A program made the translations under genes and the position numbers. The notes beneath the pieces were generated by a model. The model did not search any database and had not been told where the DNA came from. It worked only from the letters and a program-made list of their open reading frames with translations. From the NCBI GenBank assembly GCA_903825105.1, contig CAIJZI010000006.1, forward strand, positions 87,368 to 151,367: a stretch of DNA of 64,000 nucleotides, in the 5' to 3' direction. This DNA comes from an uncultured bacterium (GTDB taxonomy: Bacteria; Patescibacteriota; Minisyncoccia; Phycocordibacterales; Phycocordibacteraceae). Shown one piece after another: positions 37,429 to 64,000 of the stretch (positions are counted from its first letter, which is position 1; each line of letters starts with the position of its first letter).

Positions 37429-37676
37429 TGTATAGTACTCGTTTGAAGTCGAGTCCGCACGAATATCGCTATGCCAGTTACGAGCAAGCCTAAAATCGTA
37501 TAAAGTGGCACGAGAGTTATTTTCATTGAGTAATAAAGGGTGTCAGCAAATATCCCTATAGCGAGTGGGAGAAGTGGAACAAAAAACGAAGAAACGAGAA
37601 CGAGAAACGCTGTAAACTGCCACGGGAAAAGAATAACTGAAACAAATGCGATGAGTGTGATAAGTATGCGCATCAT
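37425..37676 (-). CDS. mreD: rod shape-determining protein MreD-like
   Basis: Small polytopic membrane protein after mreC; ATGA start/stop overlap with mreC. Confidence 0.55.
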   Translation of the reverse strand: MMRILITLIAFVSVILFPWQFTAFLVLVSSFFVPLLPLAIGIFADTLYYSMKITLVPLYTILGLLVTGIAIFVRTRLQTSTIH

Positions 37677-38500
37677 AAAGGAGTTGTTGTAGCGGAGATA
37701 GAGACTGGCACTCCAGCATCTCTTAAAAGTACCCATGTCGTAGAAAAAAGATTTACTGCGGGCACGATGTGTAGTTCTACAGCTGGCGATGAAGGATCAC
37801 TGTCGACACTACCGATGACGCCTATTGGCAAAGCCCCAGGACCTGAAACAAAAACAATGTCACCCACCGCGCTATTCGCAGAACGCGGCATTGTTGCTTT
37901 TATCGCACCAGCGCCAGCGCCGTATAAAGTGATGGGCAATTTTTTATTGCCAAACCACCCATTGGTAGCTGTCCGTGGCGAAGAAAAGAGCACCACACGC
38001 GAGAAGTTTTCTAAGACAGCAGAAACGACTCCGATAGGAGTGCCTTCTCCTCCAAAAGCTTCCATACCAACCTTCACCCCATCGTTACTACCGGCGGCGA
38101 GTACGAGAATATCGTACGGACTCTCTGGAGGACGCGCGACGACGCCAGCATATATCGCCGATGAACAAAAATCAGACTTGCAAGAAAGTCCAGAAATGTC
38201 AGCGACTTTCTGTATGAGTATCTGATTTTCATTCGCGAGTTCAGTGTTCTTTTGTATCAGAACTTCATTTTTTATCGTGAGCCGTTGTGCATTCCCAAAT
38301 CCTGATATAACAGAATGATATTCTTGTGCAATTGCATCGGAGGTATAAAAGACGGGAGAAAAAATATGCCAGAAAAAATTCGGGAAGAGTATGCGAATGA
38401 GACACAAAAAAATTGCCGCTATAAGCGCATACGCTCCGCACGAAAAGTGCTCTGCGGAAAAAAATATTTTATGCTTCGGTAAGTATGTCTTCTTCATCAA
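37673..38500 (-). CDS. mreC: rod shape-determining protein MreC
   Basis: N-terminal TM, coiled coil, beta-rich C-domain; sits between mreB and mreD. Confidence 0.75.
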   Translation of the reverse strand: MMKKTYLPKHKIFFSAEHFSCGAYALIAAIFLCLIRILFPNFFWHIFSPVFYTSDAIAQEYHSVISGFGNAQRLTIKNEVLIQKNTELANENQILIQKVADISGLSCKSDFCSSAIYAGVVARPPESPYDILVLAAGSNDGVKVGMEAFGGEGTPIGVVSAVLENFSRVVLFSSPRTATNGWFGNKKLPITLYGAGAGAIKATMPRSANSAVGDIVFVSGPGALPIGVIGSVDSDPSSPAVELHIVPAVNLFSTTWVLLRDAGVPVSISATTTPL

Positions 38501-39521
38501 TAAAGAAATCTTCGTACGGCGCCGGATCTTCGGTCACAATACCGGCTCCGCGTACAACAGCCGTGAGAGGGTCTGGCGTCACCTTCACCGGCACGCCGAG
38601 CATCTTCGCGAGCACTTGAGGAAGCCCGCGTAGAAGCGCCCCACCACCGAAAACGGTGACGCCGCGTTCGAGCACATCTGAAAGAAGTTCCGGCGGAGTC
38701 GCTTCAATCACCTCTTTCATCGCATCCATAAGCGTGTCGAGAGAGGGCGATATCGCTTCGCGTATATGTGCATCAGTGAGAAGCACTTCTCGCGGGAGTC
38801 CGGTCGCGAAGTCGCGCCCGCGCACCGTTCGAGAAAGTGTTTCTGAAAGTGGCGTCACCGCACCAATAGAAATTTTCACCTCTTCTGCCGTTCTCTCGCC
38901 TATCCCCAGTTTAAATTCGCTCCGAACAAAATCGATAATGTTTTCATTAAATCTGTCGCCCGCGACGGGCGAACTCTTTGAAGAAACGACTCCTTTAAGA
39001 GCGATAACGGCTATGTCAGTCGTGCCGCCACCAATGTCGAGCACCATTGTCCCCACGGCTTCTGACACCGGGAGCTTCGCACCGATCGCCCCAGCCACTG
39101 CCTCTTCGAGGATAATCGCTTCGCGCGCGCCCGCATTCCGCGCGGCGTCGCGCACTGCGCGGCTCTGTACATTCGTCACACCCGTCGGCACACCGATCAC
39201 CACACGCGAACCAAAGAATCGCATTCTCCCACTCTGTGCTTTATTTATAAAATAGGCGAGCAATTCTTCAGTCACTTCGAAGTCCGAGATAACACCGTGG
39301 GAGAGTGGGCGCACCACGCGAATGTGCGCTGGCGTTTTCCCCAACATCGCCTTAGCTTCTTTCCCGATCGCGACAATCTGATTGGTCTTGTCGTTTACTG
39401 CAACAACGGATGGCTCGGTGAGTACGACGCCGCGACCTTTTACATACACAAGCGTGTTCGTTGTCCCGAGGTCAATCGCGATGTCATTCCCGAAAAATAA
39501 ACTTTTTGAAAACTTCGCCAT
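38469..39521 (-). CDS. mreB: rod shape-determining protein MreB
   Basis: Actin-fold motifs (IDLGTTNTLVYV, DIGGGTTD). Confidence 0.95.
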   Translation of the reverse strand: MAKFSKSLFFGNDIAIDLGTTNTLVYVKGRGVVLTEPSVVAVNDKTNQIVAIGKEAKAMLGKTPAHIRVVRPLSHGVISDFEVTEELLAYFINKAQSGRMRFFGSRVVIGVPTGVTNVQSRAVRDAARNAGAREAIILEEAVAGAIGAKLPVSEAVGTMVLDIGGGTTDIAVIALKGVVSSKSSPVAGDRFNENIIDFVRSEFKLGIGERTAEEVKISIGAVTPLSETLSRTVRGRDFATGLPREVLLTDAHIREAISPSLDTLMDAMKEVIEATPPELLSDVLERGVTVFGGGALLRGLPQVLAKMLGVPVKVTPDPLTAVVRGAGIVTEDPAPYEDFFIDEEDILTEA

Positions 39522-42853: not shown

Positions 42854-43552
42854 CTATAGCAAATGCGACGGAATGACGAGTGAGAGATGTTCGAGAATCA
42901 TCTTTACCGGCGCGCTACGGTCGTAGAGATATGTGCGTAAAACAGCAATGTCAGAAAGAAGCGCTGCGGCTTCGCCGCCGCGCTTCTTGAATTTTTCATA
43001 CGCTACCATCTCAACACCATTTAAAATCGCGATCGCGTCATCGCGATGCTCGCGCCGTTCTTCTTCGTCATCACCACTCGCGAGCTTTTTAATCAGTGCA
43101 CTTCTTTTTTCTTTATTGGCTTTCAAAAATTCTTTGGAGCTTTCTGAAATGATGGATTTCGTAAACCCATCATTTGACTCTTTTACATTATTCAACACTT
43201 GCACGCGCGAACGCAAAGTTGGGAGAAGGCTACCAAGCGACGGCAATACCAGAAAAATATAAGTGTTTGGAGGTGGCTCTTCAAAAAGTTTTAAAAGCGC
43301 GTTTTGTGCTTCGTGATAAGCGCGACTCGCCGTGATGATGAGAGCTTTAGACTCTCCACTGAAGGGCGCGCTCGCCGCGATCTCGCAGACCTTCCGCGCA
43401 TCATCAACAGAAAAGAGTCCGTAGCGTAAAACAACAAGATCAGGATTGCTCATTTCTGCTTTCATCTTCAATTCCTTCTCCACCCACGCTCCCGCCACCT
43501 TAATTCCCTCCTCTGCCTCTGCTTCAATAACAAATGCGTGATGTAGTGTCAT
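42854..43552 (-). CDS. holB: DNA polymerase III delta' (clamp-loader) subunit-like
   Basis: KLFEEPP and LPTLRSR motifs of clamp-loader AAA+ subunits; no intact Walker A. Confidence 0.6.
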   Translation of the reverse strand: MTLHHAFVIEAEAEEGIKVAGAWVEKELKMKAEMSNPDLVVLRYGLFSVDDARKVCEIAASAPFSGESKALIITASRAYHEAQNALLKLFEEPPPNTYIFLVLPSLGSLLPTLRSRVQVLNNVKESNDGFTKSIISESSKEFLKANKEKRSALIKKLASGDDEEERREHRDDAIAILNGVEMVAYEKFKKRGGEAAALLSDIAVLRTYLYDRSAPVKMILEHLSLVIPSHLL

Positions 43553-44574
43553 TGCTTCGTTAAAATGCTTTTTTTGTAAGTATCCAAATGTTTGAGCGCG
43601 ATGCCGGTGCCGCGCGCGACACAGAAGTAGGGGTCGGTCGCTAGCTTCGCGATAACGCCTGTTCGGCGATAGACGAGCTCCGGCATTTGACGGAGCTGTG
43701 ACGAGCCGCCGGTTAGAATAATGCCATTGTCGATAATGTCGGCGGCGAGCTCGGGCGGGGTGTCCTGTAGCACCTTTCGTATCGCCTGCGTCATCTCGCG
43801 CAGTTCGCGGCTCATCGCCTGCACGATGTCGTTGGTCGAGAGGTCAACCGTGCGCGGCAGCCCGCTCATTAAGTCACGACCTTTTATCGGATACGAGATT
43901 TCTTCATTGAGCGGAACCGCGGCACCGATTTTTATTTTTATTTCTTCAGCTGTCTTGTCGCCGATCGCGAGATTGTGCTGCTTCTTCAAATGATCAACAA
44001 TCGCGTGGTCGAGCCTATCGCCCGCACACTTCACCGAGGTCGAGGCGACGATGCCGCCAAGAGAAATCACCGCGACATCGATCGTGCCGCCGCCGATGTC
44101 GACGACCATTCGCCCCATCGGTTCGTGAATCGGGATGCCCGCGCCAATCGCAGCGAGAATTGGCTCTTTAACCACATAGGCATTCTTCGCGCCGGCTTTG
44201 AGCGCCGCTTCGATCACTGCTCTCTTTTCTGTCGAAGTGACGCCAGCGGGTACAGAAATAAGAACGGTCGGCTTAAAAGGATTTCTGCCGAGCGCCTTAC
44301 GCATAAAATATTTCAACATCGCTTCAGTCACGCGATAATCAGCGATGACGCCGTCCTTCATTGGGCGATACGCGGCGATGTCATCGGGCGTTCTACCGAC
44401 CATCTGCTTCGCTTCAGCACCAATAGCGAGAATCTTATTACTCACACGCGAGTTCGCGGCTCGATTCACTGCGACAACTGACGGCTCATTTATCACCACA
44501 CCCTTCCCGGGCAAGAAAACAAGAATATTCGTCGTCCCTAAGTCAATCCCGAGTTTTGGAGAAAAGAAAGACAT
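43549..44574 (-). CDS. MreB/Mbl-family actin-like protein (second paralog)
   Basis: KLGIDLGTTNILVF, DIGGGTIDVAV; start taken at MSFFSPK. Confidence 0.85.
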   Translation of the reverse strand: MSFFSPKLGIDLGTTNILVFLPGKGVVINEPSVVAVNRAANSRVSNKILAIGAEAKQMVGRTPDDIAAYRPMKDGVIADYRVTEAMLKYFMRKALGRNPFKPTVLISVPAGVTSTEKRAVIEAALKAGAKNAYVVKEPILAAIGAGIPIHEPMGRMVVDIGGGTIDVAVISLGGIVASTSVKCAGDRLDHAIVDHLKKQHNLAIGDKTAEEIKIKIGAAVPLNEEISYPIKGRDLMSGLPRTVDLSTNDIVQAMSRELREMTQAIRKVLQDTPPELAADIIDNGIILTGGSSQLRQMPELVYRRTGVIAKLATDPYFCVARGTGIALKHLDTYKKSILTKQ

Positions 44575-44616
44575 CGTTCCTATAGTAATGGTACGATACC
44601 TCCTATGCAAGGAGGA

Positions 44617-49107: not shown

Positions 49108-49521
49108 ATGAAAAAAGTCAGAAGAATTTTTAAACCATTACCTTTTAAGCTTCGCGTCGGGAAGGCGCGCACCGGTCGTGGCCTCTTTACTGAAGAAAAT
49201 ATCCCGCGCGGCGCCTGCATTATTGAATACATCGGTCGCCCGGTTTCAAAAGAGGAACAAGAAAAGAATGGTGGAAAATATTTTTTCTGGACAGGTAAGT
49301 ACACGATGATTGACGGTAATATTAAAGAGAACACCGCGCGCTATATTAATCATTCCTGCGCGCCGAACTGCGAGGCAGATTTGTACAAAAAGAGAATTTA
49401 TATATTCGCGAAGAAAAATATAAAAGCCGGCGAAGAATTACACTACGACTACGATACCGAATATTTCGATATGCACATTAAGCCCAAAGGCTGCCTCTGC
49501 CACAAATGCTCTCCGGCGTAG
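49108..49521 (+). CDS. SET-domain protein (putative protein-lysine methyltransferase)
   Basis: RYINHSCAPNC and ELHYDYD SET motifs; C-terminal Cys cluster (post-SET-like). Confidence 0.85.
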   Translation: MKKVRRIFKPLPFKLRVGKARTGRGLFTEENIPRGACIIEYIGRPVSKEEQEKNGGKYFFWTGKYTMIDGNIKENTARYINHSCAPNCEADLYKKRIYIFAKKNIKAGEELHYDYDTEYFDMHIKPKGCLCHKCSPA

Positions 49522-49553: not shown

Positions 49554-50294
49554 TTATTTTAAATACAGAGAGAACCCACTCGTCATGGTGGCGATACCAT
49601 TTTTATCTATCGAGTAGCCTTCGAAGCCGGCGAGCTGTTCGAGAAAAATAATGCCTTCCTTCCCCATCGCGAAGACGGCGGTCGCGAAGCGGTCTGCCTC
49701 GAGCACATCGGGGCCAATGACCGTGACGCTCACGATTTCGCGGAGTTCGTCACTCGACTGGAGTGGATTATAAATATGACTACCGCGCAGGTATGAGCCC
49801 GAGGTCGCGACCCCTTTTCCGCGCGGGTACACCACTTTTATAATTTCATCTGTCTGAAATGGATTTTTAATACCGAAGCTCCATTCTTCTCCCTTCTCAT
49901 TTTTCCCACTTGAGGCGATATCGCCGCCAGCATTAACAAAAAAGTTTTTGTATCCTGCTTTTTTTATCAGCTCTGCCGTATTTTTTATAGCCCAGCCTTT
50001 TACCACGCCTGATGGATCAACCGTCCCATCAGAGCAGCGCATATTAAAATAACCATTTGTTTCTTCTCTTGTTTTTTCAGCCAAAACGAAAACTCTGCGC
50101 ATCGCGCTACTTATATCCTCATCTTTTATTTCTCCGCGATTGATACGCGAGATCTCGCTGTCTTCTTTATAAACGCTAAACTGTTTATCAACTTCTGTGA
50201 GATACTTAAACGCCATCTCGCTAGTACGCGCAGGGTCATTGCCTAGGATTTCAATTTCGATAGTCATTCCCATTATGCTTCGTGCGTCGCGCAT
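49554..50294 (-). CDS. apbE: FAD:protein FMN transferase (ApbE family)
   Basis: ApbE family blocks (GGDIASSG, GVVKGWAI). Confidence 0.75.
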   Translation of the reverse strand: MRDARSIMGMTIEIEILGNDPARTSEMAFKYLTEVDKQFSVYKEDSEISRINRGEIKDEDISSAMRRVFVLAEKTREETNGYFNMRCSDGTVDPSGVVKGWAIKNTAELIKKAGYKNFFVNAGGDIASSGKNEKGEEWSFGIKNPFQTDEIIKVVYPRGKGVATSGSYLRGSHIYNPLQSSDELREIVSVTVIGPDVLEADRFATAVFAMGKEGIIFLEQLAGFEGYSIDKNGIATMTSGFSLYLK

Positions 50295-50327
50295 ATATAC
50301 TTATACGCTTAAAAACGAGAAATATTA

Positions 50328-50816
50328 TTGCCCCTCTTTCGTATTACAAATATGCCGAGTCAATCGCCCAAATTAAAAAGTAGAAAGTTGCCCGTCGCGA
50401 TAACGCTCGTTATCGTCTCGATGATTTATGTCCTGTGGCAGTATGCCGGCGCGCAGCAGCCGGTAGAAGTCAGTGGTTCCCTTGCGCCAGTATCGACCAC
50501 CACAGTTATAACTCCTGTGAAAAAATCTGGCATCTACACCGACGGCACCTACACCGGCACCTCCGTAAATGCGTATTATGGCAATGTCCAAGTGGAGGCG
50601 ATAATCCAGAACAGTGCTTTAACTGATGTGAAATTTTTACAATCACCGAGCGACAGAAGCACTTCGATAAGAATCAGCGGTGGCGCGATGCCGATTCTCG
50701 TTCAAGAAGCGATACAGAAGCAGAGCGCGCCAGTTGACAGTGTCTCTGGCGCGACGGATATCAGCAACGCTTTTAATCAATCACTCGCGAATGCTCTGAC
50801 CCAAGCGAGAAATTAA
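50328..50816 (+). CDS. FMN-binding domain protein (membrane-anchored, extracytoplasmic)
   Basis: N-terminal TM; C-terminal FMN_bind signature VDSVSGATDISNAF (SGAT flavinylation motif). Confidence 0.75.
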   Translation: MPLFRITNMPSQSPKLKSRKLPVAITLVIVSMIYVLWQYAGAQQPVEVSGSLAPVSTTTVITPVKKSGIYTDGTYTGTSVNAYYGNVQVEAIIQNSALTDVKFLQSPSDRSTSIRISGGAMPILVQEAIQKQSAPVDSVSGATDISNAFNQSLANALTQARN

Positions 50817-50817
50817 T

Positions 50818-52293
50818 ATGCCTTTTGTTGATAATTTCTTAAATAAGATAACGATGTACCGCCTCGTGCTGTACTATCTTCTCGGGCTTTTTATTATCGC
50901 GCTCCTCTTCGGATCTTTTGGTTTTATCTCTATAAACCCGATTCATCTCATCTTCTCGACGATTATTATTCTCGCCGCCTGCGCGATAAGTAATCTGATA
51001 TTCGCGAAGAGTTTTAATGCACAGACCAATGTCGAGTCGGTCTATATCACCGCATTTATTCTCGCTCTGCTTATTTCGCCCGTCGCATACACAAACTTTG
51101 CAGGCATCGGCTTTCTCATCTTCGCCTCTGCGTGGGCGATGGCGTCAAAATTTATTTTCGCCATCAATCAAAAACATATTTTTAATCCCGCGGCTTTCGG
51201 CATCGCGCTCTCGGCGCTCGTTTTGAATCAGAGTGCGACCTGGTGGGCGGGCGGCAGCGTCGCCCTCTTACCTTTCGTCTTTTTTGGCGGGCTTCTTATT
51301 GTGCGAAAGATTCATCGATTCGACCTGGTTATTTCTTTTTCTGTTGTCGCCCTTCTCACCATCCTCGCGACGAGTGGCGGCGATTATGTGACCGTACTTT
51401 CACAAGTGCTTCTGTATTCCCCATTTTTCTTCCTCGCTTTCGTAATGCTCACCGAACCACTCACGATGCCGCCAACGCGCCTTGGAAGAATCTTTTATGG
51501 CGCGCTCGTCGGCCTTCTCTTCGCTCCCGCCATTCACTTAGGCTCGCTCTACTTCACGCCAGAGCTCGCTCTTCTCGCAGGCAATCTGCTTGCCTACTTC
51601 ATCAGCCCCGAAGGGCGCTTCACGCTCACGCTTATTGGAATAAAAGAATTAGCGACTGGCACCTACGAATTTATCTTTAAACCCGATTTTTCATTCGACT
51701 TTAAACCTGGCCAGTATCTCGAATGGACGCTCTCGCACGCTTCTCCCGACAGTCGCGGTAATCGCCGCTACTTCACGATCGCTTCATCGCCAACAGAAAA
51801 TGAGCTGCGCCTTGGGGTGAAGTTTTATGAACCAAAAAGCAGTTTCAAAAATGCTCTTGCAAAATTAAAAATCGGCGACACGATCTCTGTCTCGCATCTC
51901 GCAGGCGACTTCACCCTACCAAAAAATAATAAAAAGAAGCTAGCCTTTATCGCAGGTGGGATCGGCGTCACGCCCTTTCGCAGCCAGGTGAAATATTTAA
52001 TCGATACGGGAGACATACGCTCGGTAACACTGCTTTATGCAAATAAGTCCGCCTCCGATGTTGCTTATAAAGAATTATTTGATGGGGCAGAAGAAAAAAT
52101 CGGTATGAAATCGTTTTATCATTCGGGAAAAGTGGAGGCACACACCATTGTCGAAGAAATACCTGATTATAAAGAGCGCACTTTTTATATTTCTGGCCCG
52201 CGCGGAATGGTCGAGTCGTATAAAAAAACCCTCCTCGACCTCGGCGTCTCACGATTCAATATTAAAACGGACTACTTCCCCGGATTTGTATAA
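50818..52293 (+). CDS. fusion of a polytopic membrane domain (RnfD/NqrB-like) with an FNR-like FAD/NAD(P)-binding oxidoreductase domain
   Basis: About 250 aa of TM helices; then RYFTIAS (RxYS FAD motif) and AFIAGGIGVTPF (NAD(P)-binding glycine loop). Confidence 0.65.
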   Translation: MPFVDNFLNKITMYRLVLYYLLGLFIIALLFGSFGFISINPIHLIFSTIIILAACAISNLIFAKSFNAQTNVESVYITAFILALLISPVAYTNFAGIGFLIFASAWAMASKFIFAINQKHIFNPAAFGIALSALVLNQSATWWAGGSVALLPFVFFGGLLIVRKIHRFDLVISFSVVALLTILATSGGDYVTVLSQVLLYSPFFFLAFVMLTEPLTMPPTRLGRIFYGALVGLLFAPAIHLGSLYFTPELALLAGNLLAYFISPEGRFTLTLIGIKELATGTYEFIFKPDFSFDFKPGQYLEWTLSHASPDSRGNRRYFTIASSPTENELRLGVKFYEPKSSFKNALAKLKIGDTISVSHLAGDFTLPKNNKKKLAFIAGGIGVTPFRSQVKYLIDTGDIRSVTLLYANKSASDVAYKELFDGAEEKIGMKSFYHSGKVEAHTIVEEIPDYKERTFYISGPRGMVESYKKTLLDLGVSRFNIKTDYFPGFV

Positions 52294-52361: not shown

Positions 52362-52390
52362 TTGACAAATACAGCCACTTGTGCTAGCAT
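52362..52390 (+). promoter_or_regulatory. consensus sigma-70 promoter TTGACA-17-TAGCAT
   Basis: Perfect -35, 17-nt spacer, good -10; 54 nt upstream of an AAGGAG RBS. Confidence 0.65.
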
Positions 52391-52444
52391 AGAAACAGGT
52401 CAGTAGCACGGCAGAAATGTCGATTTCGAATTAAGGAGCAGCTC

Positions 52445-53017
52445 ATGAAAAGGCATACGGCATGGAGTAATGGCACCGTCGCAGTGACAGTGCCGCAAAA
52501 TCTGGCCCCGGCGAAGTTCTTCCCGGAGCCGAGGATGGTGAACCAGGTGCTCGTGAGCGAGTACGCGAAGTTCCAGGCGACTGTCGCCAACGGCGGCACA
52601 GCAACCTTCCACATCTTCGGCGACAGCCTCGCCGAAATGCGCGGGAAGAACATCATCGCGGATCTCGTTCTCCTGAAGGAGAAGTGCGAAGACAGGTCCG
52701 AGCGCGTCCTCCTCAACCTCATGGAGCCGAAAGAAGCATTCCGCTTCCGCAAGGCCAGCCATCAGCTGAAGGTAATGCTGAAGAAAGACGCGAGCTTCTG
52801 CGGAGGATACCGCTACTTCGATTCCGGCAATGTGTGGGTCGCTGTCGGCCCAGCGCCGGCCTACAAAGCGCAGATCAACAAGCTGCTGACTGCGACAGAG
52901 AAACGCCATGCCGTCGCGGCTACAACTGCGGGTGACAGTCAGGTCTCGAGAGGAGACTGGCGCGTCATCGATGCTCGCGGACGAGTGATTATGTCCGCGG
53001 AGTTGGCTCACGCGTAA
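52445..53017 (+). CDS. hypothetical protein encoded by a compositionally foreign (about 60% GC) gene
   Basis: RBS, promoter, terminator; strong GC3 bias unlike the neighbours; long antisense ORFs are GC artefacts. Confidence 0.6.
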   Translation: MKRHTAWSNGTVAVTVPQNLAPAKFFPEPRMVNQVLVSEYAKFQATVANGGTATFHIFGDSLAEMRGKNIIADLVLLKEKCEDRSERVLLNLMEPKEAFRFRKASHQLKVMLKKDASFCGGYRYFDSGNVWVAVGPAPAYKAQINKLLTATEKRHAVAATTAGDSQVSRGDWRVIDARGRVIMSAELAHA

Positions 53018-53030
53018 CCGCAGCACAAAC

Positions 53031-53072
53031 AAAGCCCGCAAGTTCAGGAGGAACTTGCGGGCTTTTCATTTT
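53031..53072. terminator. bidirectional rho-independent terminator
   Basis: aagcccgcaagtt-caggagg-aacttgcgggc then T-run. Confidence 0.8.
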
Positions 53073-58564: not shown

Positions 58565-59833
58565 ATGTCCAAGCTAAACATCACCTATGTGCCCGTCACT
58601 GCCCTAAAGGCAGCGGCCTATAACCCTCGTGCATGGAGCAAGGAAGCCATCGACCAGTTGACTGCAAGCATCAAGCAATACGGCTTTGTTGACCCACTGC
58701 TCGTTAACTCTGCACCGAAGCGTAAGGGGGTGGTTATCGGCGGGCACTTCCGCCTGTCGATCGCCAAGAGTCTTGGCATTAAGGAAGTGCCGGTCGTATA
58801 CCTCAATATCCCCGACCTTAGGCGCGAGAAGGAGTTGAACCTTCGTCTCAACAAGAACGTCGGCGATTGGGACTGGAAGAGGCTCGCGGAGGATTTTGAT
58901 GTCGGCGATCTGATGTCCGTCGGTTTCAGCAACGACGATCTTGGTCGCATCTTCGATGACAATGCCGATGTGAAAGACGACGGGTTCGACGAAGAACAAG
59001 AGATCGAACGTGCCAAGATCACGAAGATTAAGCCGGGCGATATGTTTGCCTTGGGTCGCCACCGTCTGCTCTGCGCAGACGCGACCGATCCTGAAAGTGC
59101 AAGAAAGCTGATGGCCGGAGTACGTGCTGACATGATCAACGACGACCCGCCATACAACATCGGTCTCTCATACGACAAGGGTGTAGGCGGCAAGGCGAAG
59201 TACGGGGGAAAGCACAACGATAGCCAATCCGAAGCAGAGTACCGCGCGTTCGTGAAGTCGGTGATGGAAAATGCGCTTGCGGTCTCAAAGCCCGATGCTC
59301 ATGTATTCTTCTGGTGCGATGAGCGTTGGGTATACCTTTTCCAGCAGTTGTACGCAGAACTCGGCATTCATTCCCTGCGCCTGTGCATCTGGATCAAGGA
59401 CAACCAGTCTCCGACACCAAATGCCGCCTTCAACAAGGTGACGGAATTTGTCGCATACGGAACCGTTGGTCGTCCGTACCTCAATGACAAGGTCGCCAAC
59501 CTCAACGAGATCATCAATAAGGAGACGACGACCGGCAACCAGCTTACTGAGGACATTCTCGATCTTCTCAATATCTGGCTGGTGAAGCGCATTGCTGGAA
59601 CCGACTATCAGCATCCCACCCAGAAGCCACCGACTCTCCACGAGAAGGCACTGCGCCGTTGTACTCGCCCAGGTGATGCGGTACTAGATCTCACCGCTGG
59701 ATCAGGGAGCATCCTCTCGGCGTGCGAGCAATTGGGTCGCACGGCGTACTGCTGCGAGATGGAGCCGATCTTCTGCCAGGTCATCATTAATCGGTACGAG
59801 AAGTTGACCGGCCTTAAGGCACGCAAGGTATGA
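58565..59833 (+). CDS. ParB-like nuclease domain fused to an N6-adenine/N4-cytosine DNA methyltransferase
   Basis: N-terminal ParB/Srx fold (KRKGVVIGGHFRLSIAKSLG); MTase motif IV DPPY and motif I (VLDLTAGSGS). Confidence 0.8.
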   Translation: MSKLNITYVPVTALKAAAYNPRAWSKEAIDQLTASIKQYGFVDPLLVNSAPKRKGVVIGGHFRLSIAKSLGIKEVPVVYLNIPDLRREKELNLRLNKNVGDWDWKRLAEDFDVGDLMSVGFSNDDLGRIFDDNADVKDDGFDEEQEIERAKITKIKPGDMFALGRHRLLCADATDPESARKLMAGVRADMINDDPPYNIGLSYDKGVGGKAKYGGKHNDSQSEAEYRAFVKSVMENALAVSKPDAHVFFWCDERWVYLFQQLYAELGIHSLRLCIWIKDNQSPTPNAAFNKVTEFVAYGTVGRPYLNDKVANLNEIINKETTTGNQLTEDILDLLNIWLVKRIAGTDYQHPTQKPPTLHEKALRRCTRPGDAVLDLTAGSGSILSACEQLGRTAYCCEMEPIFCQVIINRYEKLTGLKARKV

Positions 59834-60267
59834 GCAAGCCGCAAACCATCGAGGAGCGACAGTCGCGGGAGAAGGGGCTCTTGCTCGAACAGCTCAAGAA
59901 GGTGCCGATTGTGCACATCGCCTGCGAGAAGTCTGGGGTGGGTCGTGCCACCTATTACCGCTGGCGCGATGAAGATGAAGTATTCAAGAAGGCCGCCGAT
60001 GCGGCGCTCGTCGAGGGCGAGGCATTGATTACCGACATGTCGGAATCACAGCTGATCTCGCTCATCAAGGACCGCAAGTTCCCCGCCGTGCATCTGTGGC
60101 TGCGCCAGCACCACCCAAAGTACAAGGACAAGATCGAGGTTGTCACTCGCTCCGCAGAAGATGACACGCTCACGCCTGAACAGGAAGCAATTGTGAAAAA
60201 GGCGCTCAAACTGGGAGGGATTATTAATTCAAAGAAACACCATGGCAACTGCAAGAAAGGAGTATAA
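59830..60267 (+). CDS. putative phage terminase small subunit / HTH DNA-binding protein
   Basis: HTH KSGVGRATYYRWR; position immediately upstream of the terminase large subunit ATPase. Confidence 0.5.
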   Translation: MSKPQTIEERQSREKGLLLEQLKKVPIVHIACEKSGVGRATYYRWRDEDEVFKKAADAALVEGEALITDMSESQLISLIKDRKFPAVHLWLRQHHPKYKDKIEVVTRSAEDDTLTPEQEAIVKKALKLGGIINSKKHHGNCKKGV

Positions 60268-61243
60268 CGAGATCATCCATGCCATGCTTGCCGACAAGGC
60301 TGTTCGTCGGTCAATCGTACGCAAGAGTCATTACCTGTTCTTTTGCTTCTATCTCAGCCACTACATGGAGTACGAGATGGCCCCATTCCATAGGGAGATG
60401 TTCAACCTGTCGCAAAGCAAGCGCAACAAGTTCTTGGTCATCATGGCTGCTCGCGGGTTCGCCAAGTCTACGATCTTGAACCTGTCATACGCACTCTGGT
60501 CGATACTGGGAGAGCAAAAGAAGAAGTTTGTCCTCATCATCAGCGGTACGCATAGCCAAGCAAGATATCACTTCATGAATATTCGTGAGGAATTGAAGAA
60601 TAATCCTAGGTTAGCAGCAGATCTAGGGCCATTCGAGACAGACGACGCTGGCTGGGGAGTGAACTCCCTCTCGCTTCCGAAGATGGGAGCGCGCATCTCG
60701 CTCGCCTCGCGCGAGCAAGCCCTGCGCGGTATTCGCTCCGGCCAGTATCGCCCTGATCTCATTATCTGCGACGACCTTGAGGATTCGAGGGATGTAGAGT
60801 CTATTGCGGAGCGGACCGCCTCCTACCAATGGTTCGTTAATGAGGTCATGTCTGCGGGAAGCAAGAACACCAACGTGGTTGTCTTGGGGAATTTGCTGCA
60901 CGAAGACTCACTGCTCATGCGACTGAAGAAGGACATTGAGCAAAAGAAGATAGCCGGAGTCTTCCGCGCGTATCCTCTACTGGATGATGATGGTCGCATT
61001 ATGTGGCCGGGAAAGTATGGCTCGCAAAAGCAGATCGAGGCCTTACAAATGAGCGTACTGGATACGGAAACATGGGAGCGCGAATATCTGTTGAAGTATC
61101 GAGGACATTTCAGCCTTATACAGCTTGGGAAGGAGCGGGATGAGTTGACGCGGCTTGGAGCTGAAGAGTATCGGAGGATTCACCCAAAGCCAGAACCGTA
61201 TCGCCTAGGTGAGTATCGCATTAGCGCACCAACTAAGTTGTAG
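60242..61243 (+). CDS. phage terminase large subunit, ATPase domain only (apparently truncated)
   Basis: Walker A MAARGFAKST, Walker B LIICDDLED; 333 aa with no nuclease domain. Confidence 0.65.
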   Translation: MATARKEYNEIIHAMLADKAVRRSIVRKSHYLFFCFYLSHYMEYEMAPFHREMFNLSQSKRNKFLVIMAARGFAKSTILNLSYALWSILGEQKKKFVLIISGTHSQARYHFMNIREELKNNPRLAADLGPFETDDAGWGVNSLSLPKMGARISLASREQALRGIRSGQYRPDLIICDDLEDSRDVESIAERTASYQWFVNEVMSAGSKNTNVVVLGNLLHEDSLLMRLKKDIEQKKIAGVFRAYPLLDDDGRIMWPGKYGSQKQIEALQMSVLDTETWEREYLLKYRGHFSLIQLGKERDELTRLGAEEYRRIHPKPEPYRLGEYRISAPTKL

Positions 61244-61850: not shown

Positions 61851-62099
61851 GTTGAATTATCGTTATGGATAAATCCGGGTCGGCGGGTAGCACAAAACCC
61901 GCCACCAGGAGCCCTTGCGGGCCTATAGGAGTTTCCCCCTATAACGCATCGAACGCCCTGATGACGGGTTTTCTAGGTTCGATGCGATTTGCGACCATGC
62001 CATTGACCGAAGTCACTGGTTTAGGTCGGTACTAGCCAAAGCTAGTACCTTAAAGATATCTCACTTTAGGGGTTCTGCGAAGACCTTGCTTGAAGACAA

Positions 62100-64000
62100 T
62101 TATTTAGGGGCGATATTTCCCTTTTCTACCTCCGCCCATTTCCAATATTCTTCGTTCTCCTTATTAGTCTTGAAGGGCATTAACCCCGCGATACCTTCTA
62201 CTAGCGCCTTTTTAAGGGCAACGTTCCCCTCGCTTTCTATTCTTAATTTAATATCGTCAAAATTGGACTTTCTATCCTCATATTTAGGCTTCAGAGCTTG
62301 TAGTACAAGCGATGTTTCAGCGATATGAGCAGCCTGATCCGACTTACGTAGGATTTCATCGAATAGAAAGTGTACGAATTCGTTCTTTTCCTCCTGATTT
62401 AGTTCCTCAAATCCGATTGCTACTGCATGAATTAACGAAGGTTGGCATTTGGGAGAAATTTCAGGTTTCTTAAGCCAATCAAAAGTCTCTTTCACTATCT
62501 TCCTCGTAAGTTCTTTGGAAAGAGTTGCCTCCTCGAAAGCCCCAAGTCCAACCTTTTGGAGGGCTTGATCCATCGTCATAAGACAGGCACCAATCTTTGT
62601 GGCTAAGGTTTCTCTAATCACCGCCTCACCATTGGCCTTATGTTTGTTGATGAATGAGAAAATTTTACGTTTCTGATCTGAATTCGCACCGTCATATTTA
62701 GACCAAATCTTTTCAGCGATAGCAAAGACGTGATTTACGTCTTTCGTGTTCAACGTATCAAAGAACGCAATTGCCTTGTCGAGATCGTAATTAAGAATTC
62801 GTTCGAGAAATTGTTGTTTTCTGGAGTTGTTGAGGAGACCAAAAAAATTATCTCTGAAAACCTGGTCTGCAAGTCCTCGGTTTGCCGCAGTGTCAAAAAT
62901 CGACTGGACATCGAAGAAGAGGGCTTGTGTATCGGGTGAAAGATCCCTGTAAGCTACCTCCAGTGCGTCGGAGGATACATTTCCTAACCAGCTACTCACA
63001 AAACGTTCAGTCTCATCTTTTTTGGGTGGGCTTAGTAAGTCCCGCATCTCAAAAAGAACTGGCACAAATACCGATCTAATTTGATGGTCTGCAGGTGCAT
63101 TGAACCCTGCGTTTAGGACATCCGCAAACGCATCTTTCGTGGCAGCAGAAACGGAAGAAAGTATCGGACCATGGGCCCTGAGGAATTCTCTATATTGATC
63201 TAGGAGTTTTTTCTTTTCCGGATATGTCTCTGGTTTAGAGTTTTGGTTCTCTCCAACCTGCAAATCAATAAACTTTCTTATTAGGACTTCTCCGTCTACT
63301 TGTGTTAGCAAAGCAGTAGTAAATTTATTGAGGACTTCCACTCTACTACTCACGTCATCAATAGCTCCCCCAGCAGGAATATTGCTTGCAAAGTTGCGGA
63401 GATATTCTGCTGTCACAAGGGCATCCTGGGCTTCGGGAGATTTAACGAGTATCTTCGCGGTCTCTATATCATTTGCCAGATGGTTAACCAGCAGATTTCT
63501 AACCTTTGTTTTTTGATCAGCTCCCAAGTAATCGGGTTGTGTAGCAAATATTGTAATGATCTTTCTTACATAATCTTTGTCAGACTTGTGTGTGTTCGGT
63601 CCAGATAGAACGTCGTCAATTACGGTAATCCATTGAGGGACGACAGTTTTACGATACTTTGTATTTCTAGTAAGAAAAGCATCATTCAGAATGTCGGGCG
63701 AGATTGTATGCAACTCCTCTTTACAACGCCCGGCAAGGATATTATTTATCTCTTCGTAAAGAGTGGATGCTAGTACTGTCTTCTTTTCCGAAAGGATCAC
63801 TAAAAGCGTATGGATGAGGTTTATCGAGGAGACCGGATTCGTCTTACTTTCCAACTCCTCCTTTATTGCCTGACTAAAGTCAGTCATTAAATCTACTTTT
63901 GCCAAATCCCCAATTTGATCAAAGTATTTAGCTGCATCTTCCGTATTCCTGTCCTCTAGGTGCGCAATGAGGGTTTCAAAGCCGGGGAACTTCTTTTCTT
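62100..64000 (-). CDS. large alpha-helical hypothetical protein, low GC; N-terminus probably beyond the window
   Basis: The reading frame stays open to the window edge; the listed ORF start is a TTG; codon usage unlike the core genes. Confidence 0.5.
   Translation of the reverse strand, partial: EKKFPGFETLIAHLEDRNTEDAAKYFDQIGDLAKVDLMTDFSQAIKEELESKTNPVSSINLIHTLLVILSEKKTVLASTLYEEINNILAGRCKEELHTISPDILNDAFLTRNTKYRKTVVPQWITVIDDVLSGPNTHKSDKDYVRKIITIFATQPDYLGADQKTKVRNLLVNHLANDIETAKILVKSPEAQDALVTAEYLRNFASNIPAGGAIDDVSSRVEVLNKFTTALLTQVDGEVLIRKFIDLQVGENQNSKPETYPEKKKLLDQYREFLRAHGPILSSVSAATKDAFADVLNAGFNAPADHQIRSVFVPVLFEMRDLLSPPKKDETERFVSSWLGNVSSDALEVAYRDLSPDTQALFFDVQSIFDTAANRGLADQVFRDNFFGLLNNSRKQQFLERILNYDLDKAIAFFDTLNTKDVNHVFAIAEKIWSKYDGANSDQKRKIFSFINKHKANGEAVIRETLATKIGACLMTMDQALQKVGLGAFEEATLSKELTRKIVKETFDWLKKPEISPKCQPSLIHAVAIGFEELNQEEKNEFVHFLFDEILRKSDQAAHIAETSLVLQALKPKYEDRKSNFDDIKLRIESEGNVALKKALVEGIAGLMPFKTNKENEEYWKWAEVEKGNIAPK

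Follow-up and report, generated by a model that had tools for sequence, protein, structure and literature searches.

A probable NQR/RNF-like flavinylation module with a leaderless ApbE on a contig of an uncultured patescibacterium

Three adjacent genes in a 64,000-nucleotide stretch of contig CAIJZI010000006.1 (assembly GCA_903825105.1, positions 87,368 to 151,367; hereafter the window), derived from an uncultured bacterium of the Patescibacteriota, encode an ApbE-family flavin transferase, a protein with an FMN_bind domain and a fusion of an RnfD/NqrB-like membrane domain with a module resembling ferredoxin-NADP reductase (FNR). We assign this locus with high confidence to the NQR/RNF-like class of transmembrane electron-transfer systems linked to flavinylation. 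Méheust et al. (2021, eLife, PMC8238504) defined this class from genome surveys by the occurrence of just this fusion inside a flavinylation gene cluster, and reported 127 NQR/RNF-like clusters, mainly in Actinobacteria and the candidate phyla radiation (CPR). In the window, an N-terminal PF03116 membrane domain and a C-terminal PF00175 domain are likewise found in one protein, encoded within five genes of ApbE and FMN_bind. The module type is thus already described in the literature, and the locus adds a new member to it. A preliminary description of this DNA had implied a greater novelty than applies to a module type known since 2021.

The three genes were placed using the listing of open reading frames (ORFs) of the window and their translations, and were confirmed at the positions described before (Table 1). 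Pfam matches were judged against the gathering thresholds, which all domain calls of the module pass, in agreement with the ApbE, FMN_bind and RnfD-like/FNR-like assignments of the preliminary description. In the fusion protein, FAD_binding_6 covers residues 282-363 (22.8 bits, cut-off 21.1) and NAD_binding_1 (PF00175) residues 377-469 (40 bits, cut-off 22). NCBIfam places the C-terminal half with flavohemoprotein, PaaE, Fre and NqrF-type reductases. A model of the full-length fusion (predicted local distance difference test, pLDDT, 84.5) matched the dehydrogenase domains of flavohemoglobin, NqrF, cytochrome b5 reductase and SpNOX in Foldseek (E = 1e-16 to 1e-11). The RxYS site for flavin adenine dinucleotide (FAD) and the GGxGxxP loop, both predicted earlier, are present as RRYFTIAS (51763-51786) and GGIGVTP (51955-51975) and, like the SGP motif and the penultimate F490, are invariant or nearly so in 54 relatives. 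The protein thereby exhibits the R-x-[YF]-[ST] FAD site, the GGxGxxP loop, the [CS]GP motif, the C-terminal aromatic residue and the two-domain fold of the FNR superfamily. According to Pfam, its FNR part is without the 2Fe-2S domain which in NqrF connects FAD with the membrane. The resemblance of the motifs to those of cytochrome b5 reductase and NqrF suggests that NADH is a more likely electron donor than NADPH.

The membrane half of the fusion is matched by NQR2_RnfD_RnfE (PF03116) at residues 152-262 (31.6 bits, cut-off 27.7) and weakly by RnfD/RsxD models in NCBIfam. Since the only Foldseek matches of the full-length model were to its FNR domain, the membrane domain was modelled separately. 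The resulting AlphaFold2 model (pLDDT 94.7, predicted template-modelling score 0.91) found exclusively RnfD or NqrB chains among its top 15 matches in the PDB (probability 1.0, query-normalised template-modelling score 0.57-0.71). The urea transporters, known as distant relatives of the RnfD/NqrB fold, followed far below.

A profile built from 29 diverse family members and compared with solved structures detected RnfD (8ahx_D, E = 1.7e-5) and NqrB (7xk3_B, E = 3.8e-5). The aligned blocks of the fusion cover NqrB 133-210 and 280-395 as well as RnfD from residue 221 on, but skip NqrB 211-279 and RnfD 143-220. Only 9-20 fusion residues take the place of the 70-78-residue loop which in NqrB/RnfD bears the flavinylated Thr (T236 of V. 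cholerae NqrB), and the motif [ST][GAS]A[ST] does not occur in the fusion protein. Judged from this alignment, the loop carrying covalently bound flavin mononucleotide (FMN) in NqrB/RnfD, about 70 residues long, is deleted. Because of this loss the FMN_bind protein is left as the sole canonical target of the ApbE. The earlier proposal that ApbE flavinylates both FMN_bind domains and NqrB/RnfD-type subunits therefore appears to apply here to the former but not to the latter. In the short loop that replaces the deleted one, W142 is invariant, W143 is conserved in at least 90%, and 53 of 54 relatives carry Thr or Ser at position 141; this A[ST]WW loop may have a role in flavin docking. T141 of the conserved SATWW was also considered as a relic flavinylation site. 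This was rejected, as the residue aligns with RnfD QMTTW (138-142) just past the NPA helix, the Asp of the motif is absent and the actual flavinylation loop is deleted.

When the helices of the model were combined with the 29 homologues, the predicted inner loops contained on average 10.8 Lys and Arg residues compared to 1.6 in the outer loops. The membrane domain is predicted to comprise ten membrane segments with both termini inside, as in NqrB/RnfD, and by the positive-inside bias the FNR domain faces the cytoplasm and the A[ST]WW loop is external. The membrane domain contains a single invariant His (H120) and no conserved Cys. Heme or Fe-S centres are therefore unlikely in this domain, and a flavin-only path is favoured over an Fe-S or bis-heme one. 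Two acidic intramembrane residues are invariant, E73 and E213, the latter within a TEP motif that aligns with the TDP motif of NqrB/RnfD.

The FMN_bind protein had been described as carrying an SGAT covalent-flavinylation motif, and this motif, including the Thr, was found as DSVSGAT at residues 137-143 of the ORF. It is the sole match to D..[ST][GAS]A[ST] among the 87 non-overlapping ORFs of the window (0.29 expected by chance) and aligns with DAVSGAT of 8p2a, an FMN-binding domain that is the best match of the protein among solved structures (E = 4.2e-8). Nearly all of 69 FMN_bind homologues possess [ST]GA[ST] about 20-25 residues from the C-terminus, and T143 is predicted to be flavinylated by the ApbE. 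The N-terminus consists of KLKSRK followed by a hydrophobic anchor of 19 residues (score 1.86), as judged by hydropathy and a charge rule only. Almost all of the 69 partners begin with MKK and a hydrophobic anchor, after which a Ser/Thr/Ala/Pro-rich linker of variable length follows. In the 44 partners whose anchor is strong, the Lys/Arg bias favours a cytoplasmic N-terminus in 30 and disfavours it in 9. The protein is thus predicted to be single-pass, membrane-anchored, exported and NqrC/RnfG-like, which would fit the outside location of its domain expected before. Some modules contain a second FMN_bind paralogue of 160-320 amino acids (locus L004, 7921-8733, minus strand; L079, 7645-8604, minus strand; L028, 7984-8472; L033, 2314-2844). 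In the closest relatives of the window this paralogue is situated between ApbE and the FMN_bind-fusion pair; it has been lost from the window.

Fold and motifs indicate that the ApbE is a compact FAD:protein FMN transferase. Its residue 8 aligns to chain residue 23, the start of the mature fold, of the ApbE structures from E. coli, Salmonella and V. cholerae, and the motifs SGSY, SH(I/V)xxP and EAD..T are kept. Y42 aligns with Y60 of the E. coli enzyme; according to Deka et al. (PMC4767422), this Tyr is in contact with the isoalloxazine ring and characterises the class of FAD-binding, transferase-type enzymes. An internal deletion of about 45 residues (at residues ~84-88) corresponds to residues 104-150 of E. 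coli ApbE. The N-terminal lipoprotein or secretion signal, typical though not universal in characterised ApbEs, is absent from the enzyme, and hydropathy analysis detected no hydrophobic stretch, signal peptide or lipobox anywhere in the window copy. A leader is lacking in all 68 module-linked ApbE copies examined, i.e. that of the window, those of 63 loci from a genome scan and those of loci L084-L087, one of which is from Chloroflexota. The 63 scan copies fall into two subfamilies of about 246 and about 290 amino acids, both without a hydrophobic leader. The shorter form starts with MK(E/Q)TRxxMGM, the first strand of the mature fold, and the longer form was found in L059, L071, L073, L075, L077, L078, L080 and L082. 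A missed N-terminal exon or a miscalled start was considered and rejected, since an in-frame stop lies upstream, only 57 nt remain to the divergent gene, and all homologues begin at the same MKxTRxxMGM.

The genome scan covered one genome per species and yielded 80 loci. Where their titles are informative, these name lineages of Patescibacteria (Paceibacterota, Kaiser-, Adler-, Nomura-, Zambryski-, Staskawicz-, Magasanik- and Doudnabacteria), while a number of other titles are odd or uninformative. Several records of close relatives (L005, L007, L012, L055, L063 and others) are titled "uncultured Candidatus Saccharibacteria" or "Gammaproteobacteria", and these taxon labels look unreliable. Synteny was analysed by local ORF calling and phmmer in the 66 loci with at least 2.5 kb of upstream sequence. 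FMN_bind lies directly upstream of the fusion in 57 of them and ApbE within 5 kb in 52, on the same strand in 46 cases and on the opposite strand in 6. The commonest order is FMN_bind-ApbE-fusion, co-directional and with overlapping or nearly abutting ends. The minority with a flipped ApbE includes the window and its nearest relatives (L004, L006, L007, L011, L015, L022, L079). The divergent arrangement noticed at first is therefore real in the window, but represents a local rearrangement, in its sub-lineage, of a normally co-directional operon. The fusion is 60-83% identical to its closest relatives among the matches listed, of which the named ones are Paceibacterota, Minisyncoccia, Kaiserbacteria and "Patescibacteria group", which assigns the window to a CPR bacterium. 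Fusion homologues number in the thousands. The membrane-domain family comprises 1514 clusters at 50% identity, 335 of them with E <= 1e-30, and the best-scoring cluster representatives are mostly about 500 amino acids long, i.e. fused to an FNR module. A Chloroflexota genome (L084, GCA_040007395.1) and three further long contigs carry the same trio as well. Because of the thousands of fusion homologues and the synteny in most of the related loci, the trio is far beyond chance.

As to function, we regard as probable a flavin-only conduit of two subunits accompanied by its maturation enzyme. In NqrB/RnfD, about 8 Å separate a riboflavin on the cytoplasmic side from a covalent FMN on the periplasmic one, and the two carry electrons inward from the FMN of NqrC/RnfG (PMC12174285). 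In the module, NAD(P)H would reduce the FAD in the cytoplasmic FNR-like domain of the fusion, and the electrons would then pass to a non-covalent flavin inside the ten-segment RnfD/NqrB-like domain, reversing the riboflavin-FMN half-path of NqrB/RnfD. From there they would reach the covalent FMN attached by ApbE to Thr143 of the membrane-anchored FMN_bind protein, which would dock at the outer A[ST]WW face where NqrB/RnfD hold their own covalent FMN, and finally leave to some extracytoplasmic acceptor. By analogy, such a reversed half-path would be the most economical mechanism. Méheust et al. proposed a unidirectional flow of electrons from NAD(P)H to the outside (PMC8238504). Huang et al. 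(2024, mSystems, PMC11334425/PMC10979944) modelled a Ktedonobacter complex by AlphaFold-multimer, in which the NqrC/RnfG-like subunit docks on the RnfD-like subunit and the covalent flavin of the partner reaches a vacant flavin site of the latter (PMC10979944). The transfer from NAD(P)H to a flavinylated extracytoplasmic acceptor that had been suggested for the window matches this published class model.

The proposed path builds on the domain identities, folds, motifs, predicted topology, loop loss, synteny and missing Rnf/Nqr subunits. Several points weigh against it. Which cofactors the membrane domain holds, in which direction the electrons flow, which donor is preferred and which acceptor is used are points that we infer from these data. 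An experimental study of any member of the NQR/RNF-like class was not found in the literature. Furthermore, the ApbE looks cytosolic while its sole canonical substrate looks exported, so that one maturation step is unexplained. The location of enzyme and substrate on the outside, implied in the preliminary description, would accordingly fit the predicted signal anchor of the FMN_bind protein but conflicts with the leaderless ApbE.

Instead of a respiration-like regeneration of NAD+, the electron export might serve to reduce iron or to defend the cell against envelope or oxidative stress. The module would then supply external reducing power under the control of an extracytoplasmic function (ECF) sigma factor, with Fe(III), O2 or reactive oxygen species, quinones or oxidised envelope components as candidate acceptors. 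We hold this role only tentatively; it is compatible with the conduit described above. Neighbouring genes were counted within 6 kb on either side of the fusion in 82 loci. In 23 loci an ECF sigma factor was present, and in 17 a multi-pass membrane protein that has about 235-247 amino acids and matches DUF5666 weakly, both usually just upstream and on the same strand (examples are L003 5134-6397, L059 6526-7831 and L013 1025-2282). In 9 loci (L059, L069, L082, L041, L064, L071, L072, L073, L080) the fusion has genes for MsrA and MsrB downstream of it, on its own strand; they are immediately adjacent in L059 (11551-12567), L069 and L082, starting 81-437 bp past the fusion stop. The Chloroflexota locus and L085 likewise have a sigma factor next to the module, Nramp lies upstream of it in L086, and VIT1 iron transporters occur in 6 of the clusters of Méheust et al. 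(PMC8238504). These recurrent neighbours suggest a link to envelope or oxidative-stress regulation or to metal reduction, but they are limited to a minority of the loci and may reflect lineage synteny. In addition, neither an ECF sigma factor nor a DUF5666-like protein, MsrA/MsrB or Nramp is encoded in the window. MsrA and MsrB carry no export signal and normally use thioredoxin, which also argues against this role. A D-2-hydroxyacid dehydrogenase recurs in 9 of the 82 loci.

The leaderless ApbE poses the concrete question of where and when flavinylation happens. As far as we found, the discrepancy between a leaderless ApbE and an exported substrate is discussed in neither Méheust et al. 2021 nor Huang et al. 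2024. Signal peptides go unmentioned in the latter, and the former retained a cluster if any single target gene had a signal peptide (PMC8238504). It might be that throughout the module class ApbE acts in the cytosol and the C-terminal motif of FMN_bind is flavinylated before the chain is threaded through Sec, although we would not regard this as the likely case. Chemically such a step is plausible, because the 7-residue tags modified by ApbE work best when placed at a protein terminus (PMC12052999) and the cell interior offers FAD; that a flavinylated chain would then be exported is something we purely infer. If true, this would be a maturation route not previously described that needs no export of FAD. 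It is also possible that ApbE is exported by some unrecognised route.

Alternatively, the FMN_bind domain itself could be cytosolic like the ApbE. In this case the covalent FMN would link, on the inner side, the FAD of the FNR domain with the membrane domain, and transport across the membrane, be it of electrons or of an ion or solute, would fall to the RnfD-like domain alone. We judge this geometry unlikely. It would account for the 68 leaderless ApbEs, including the one from Chloroflexota, and for an FNR part devoid of the bridging 2Fe-2S domain of NqrF; a missed exon would find no room upstream of the ApbE in the window. Moreover, cytoplasmic ApbEs modifying cytoplasmic FMN_bind domains are known in Klebsiella (PMC12052999). 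Against this geometry stand the MKK-type anchors of the partners, whose charge bias predominantly favours export, and their Ser/Thr/Pro linkers, which are typical of exported tethers. The homologues NqrC and RnfG are extracytoplasmic (PMC12174285), the published multimer model docks the FMN_bind domain at the outer face (PMC10979944), and the conserved A[ST]WW loop that substitutes for the FMN loop is predicted outside. Either cytosolic flavinylation or a wrong outside-facing topology would revise the published model of the class.

A minimal redox-driven ion pump, a stripped-down NQR coupling electron transfer to the export of Na+ or H+, is still more improbable. The RnfD/NqrB fold has relatives among urea and ammonium channels and was suggested to form the ion path of NQR/RNF (PMC12174285), and the invariant E73 and E213 would suit this function. 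In the current NQR/RNF models (PMC12174285), however, ions are coupled to the 2Fe-2S switch of NqrD/E (RnfA/E) and to a two-site movement of NqrC, both absent here, and direct evidence for pumping is lacking. Genes for the other Rnf/Nqr subunits (RnfA/E, RnfB, RnfC, NqrA, NqrD/E) were found neither in the window nor in the related loci inspected. This agrees with the self-contained module proposed at the outset and, together with the conserved trio, led us to reject a fragment of an Rnf/Nqr operon. That the genes are a decayed, non-functional remnant of such an operon, as the distant RnfD similarity (Pfam covers the C-terminal third only) and the missing flavinylation loop might suggest, is hardly credible and in effect already refuted by conservation, given the intact ORFs, the identity and the many invariant residues that the fusion shares with the Patescibacteria relatives among the matches listed, the large and mostly fused family, and the conserved, translationally coupled three-gene unit.

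Compared with the published NQR/RNF-like system, nothing essential is different here. The NqrB/RnfD-like (PF03116)-PF00175 fusion, the NqrC/RnfG-like FMN_bind partner and the ApbE in the cluster are the same, and in the class, too, conservation does not extend to the Thr that is flavinylated in NqrB/RnfD (PMC10979944). Our analysis adds that this Thr was lost by a deletion of the loop and that the A[ST]WW loop is conserved instead. It further adds the leaderless ApbE in every module examined, the recurrent ECF-sigma and MsrA/B neighbours and the ApbE flipped to the other strand in the sub-lineage of the window.

With Na+-NQR (NqrABCDEF) and RNF (RnfABCDGE) the module shares the NqrB/RnfD fold, a covalently flavinylated NqrC/RnfG-type subunit, an NqrF-type FAD/NAD domain and maturation by ApbE. 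It differs by the absence, in the window and the loci inspected, of NqrA/RnfC, NqrD/E (RnfA/E), RnfB and Fe-S centres, and by the absence of a covalent FMN site on the B/D-like domain, to which the dehydrogenase is directly fused. Furthermore, the electron flow proposed here is one-way and outward, whereas theirs is semicircular. NOX/FRE enzymes such as SpNOX of S. pneumoniae (8qt6/8qq1) are likewise built as fusions of a C-terminal FNR-like domain with a membrane domain for outward electron transport. Their membrane domain, however, has six helices and two hemes b, while that of the module is RnfD/NqrB-like with one invariant His and presumably employs flavins and a separate flavinylated subunit. 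In the flavin-based extracellular electron transfer (EET) of Listeria (Ndh2, EetA/B, PplA, FmnB), NADH electrons likewise end on an extracytoplasmic FMN_bind protein flavinylated by ApbE. This pathway needs a quinone (demethylmenaquinone, DMK) and Ndh2, and its FmnB is a secreted lipoprotein fed with exported FAD (PMC9973259). The module, in contrast, has no quinone step and its ApbE no leader, and genes for Ndh2, EetA/EetB, DMK biosynthesis or a secreted FmnB were not found in the window. The cytoplasmic ApbE of Klebsiella pneumoniae, involved in the maturation of fumarate reductase, lacks a signal peptide, too (PMC12052999), but its substrate is a soluble cytoplasmic enzyme, whereas the canonical substrate in the module has an N-terminal signal anchor.

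Patescibacteria (CPR) account for much of bacterial diversity and are considered to be without electron-transport chains. The module, which is strongly conserved in this group, would provide these cells with a quinone-, heme- and Fe-S-free way of unloading NAD(P)H electrons outside the cell, and for many of them it may represent the principal redox device of the membrane. This would be relevant for their redox balance, coping with oxygen, iron acquisition and possibly host interaction. As the simplest natural derivative of the half-path formed by NqrB/RnfD and NqrC/RnfG, the module would also be a tractable model for flavin-to-flavin electron transfer across a membrane.

Table 1. Coordinates of the module and of further features in the window (aa, amino acids).
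Feature	Position	Strand	Remarks
ApbE-family gene	49554-50294	-	246 aa; Pfam ApbE E = 6.5e-40
Divergent intergenic region, ApbE ATG to FMN_bind ATG	50295-50351	.	57 nt, AT-rich, read directly
FMN_bind gene	50328-50816	+	162 aa, ORF opens at TTG 50328; Pfam FMN_bind 27.2 bits, cut-off 22
Flavinylation motif D137-S-V-S-G-A-T143	50736-50756	+	T143 is the predicted FMN attachment site
Fusion gene (RnfD/NqrB-like + FNR-like)	50818-52293	+	491 aa
RnfD/NqrB-like membrane domain, fusion residues 1-262	50818-51603	+	Pfam PF03116 E = 1.4e-7
Short outer loop NQSATWWAGGS, fusion residues 137-147 (predicted)	51226-51258	+	replaces the NqrB/RnfD flavinylation loop
FNR-like FAD/NAD(P)H dehydrogenase domain, fusion residues 268-491 (predicted cytoplasmic)	51619-52293	+	Pfam FAD_binding_6, NAD_binding_1
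MreC	37673-38500		
MreB, first paralogue	38469-39521	-	full-length
MreB, second paralogue	43549-44610	-	full-length
SET-domain protein	49108-49521	+	137 aa; Pfam SET E = 6.4e-24
Orphan gene unit	52362-53065		190-aa ORF at 52445-53017 (+), no Pfam match
Promoter-like element of orphan unit	52362-52390		10/12 sigma-70-like site with TG extension
Terminator hairpin of orphan unit	53031-53065		perfect 15-bp, bidirectional
ParB N-terminal domain fused to N6/N4 DNA methylase	58565-59833	+	
Large ORF	60242-61243	+	no Pfam match
LOOT RNA (RF03000)	61910-62027	-	Rfam 78.8 bits, gathering score 46.4, full model covered
Large ORF	62100-63905	-	no Pfam match

ApbE is the next gene upstream of FMN_bind, on the opposite strand. 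The true start of FMN_bind is likely the ATG at 50352, which gives a protein of 154 amino acids with the MKK-type N-terminus of its homologues. A single nucleotide separates the FMN_bind stop from the start of the fusion. The divergent intergenic region may serve as promoter, but a scan of it for consensus sigma-70 promoters gave nothing above background, and no RNA element was detected by Rfam in or adjoining the module.

A Pfam survey of about 40 window proteins revealed only housekeeping functions, among them cell wall and shape proteins (an MraY-type GT4 protein, FtsW, MurG, two penicillin-binding proteins, MraW, a Mur ligase, two MreB and MreC), five aminoacyl-tRNA synthetases, DnaB, RmuC, CorA and S41 and M50 proteases. 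Other respiratory or redox genes were not found in the window by this survey. The module might, as the preliminary description suggested, be the only membrane redox system of the organism or a device resembling EET. The immediate neighbours of the module, an SRPBCC protein, a half-size EamA transporter, a SET-domain protein and YceG, have no evident link to it.

The SET-domain protein adjoining ApbE is a bacterial member of its family in a CPR genome. Just downstream of the module lies an orphan gene unit with a promoter-like element and a terminator hairpin of its own; a 213-aa antisense ORF overlapping the orphan gene is probably spurious. Two large ORFs adjoin the gene in which a ParB N-terminal domain is fused to a DNA methylase. 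The window furthermore contains, in a reduced genome, two full-length MreB paralogues besides MreC, and a LOOT RNA was identified on the minus strand.

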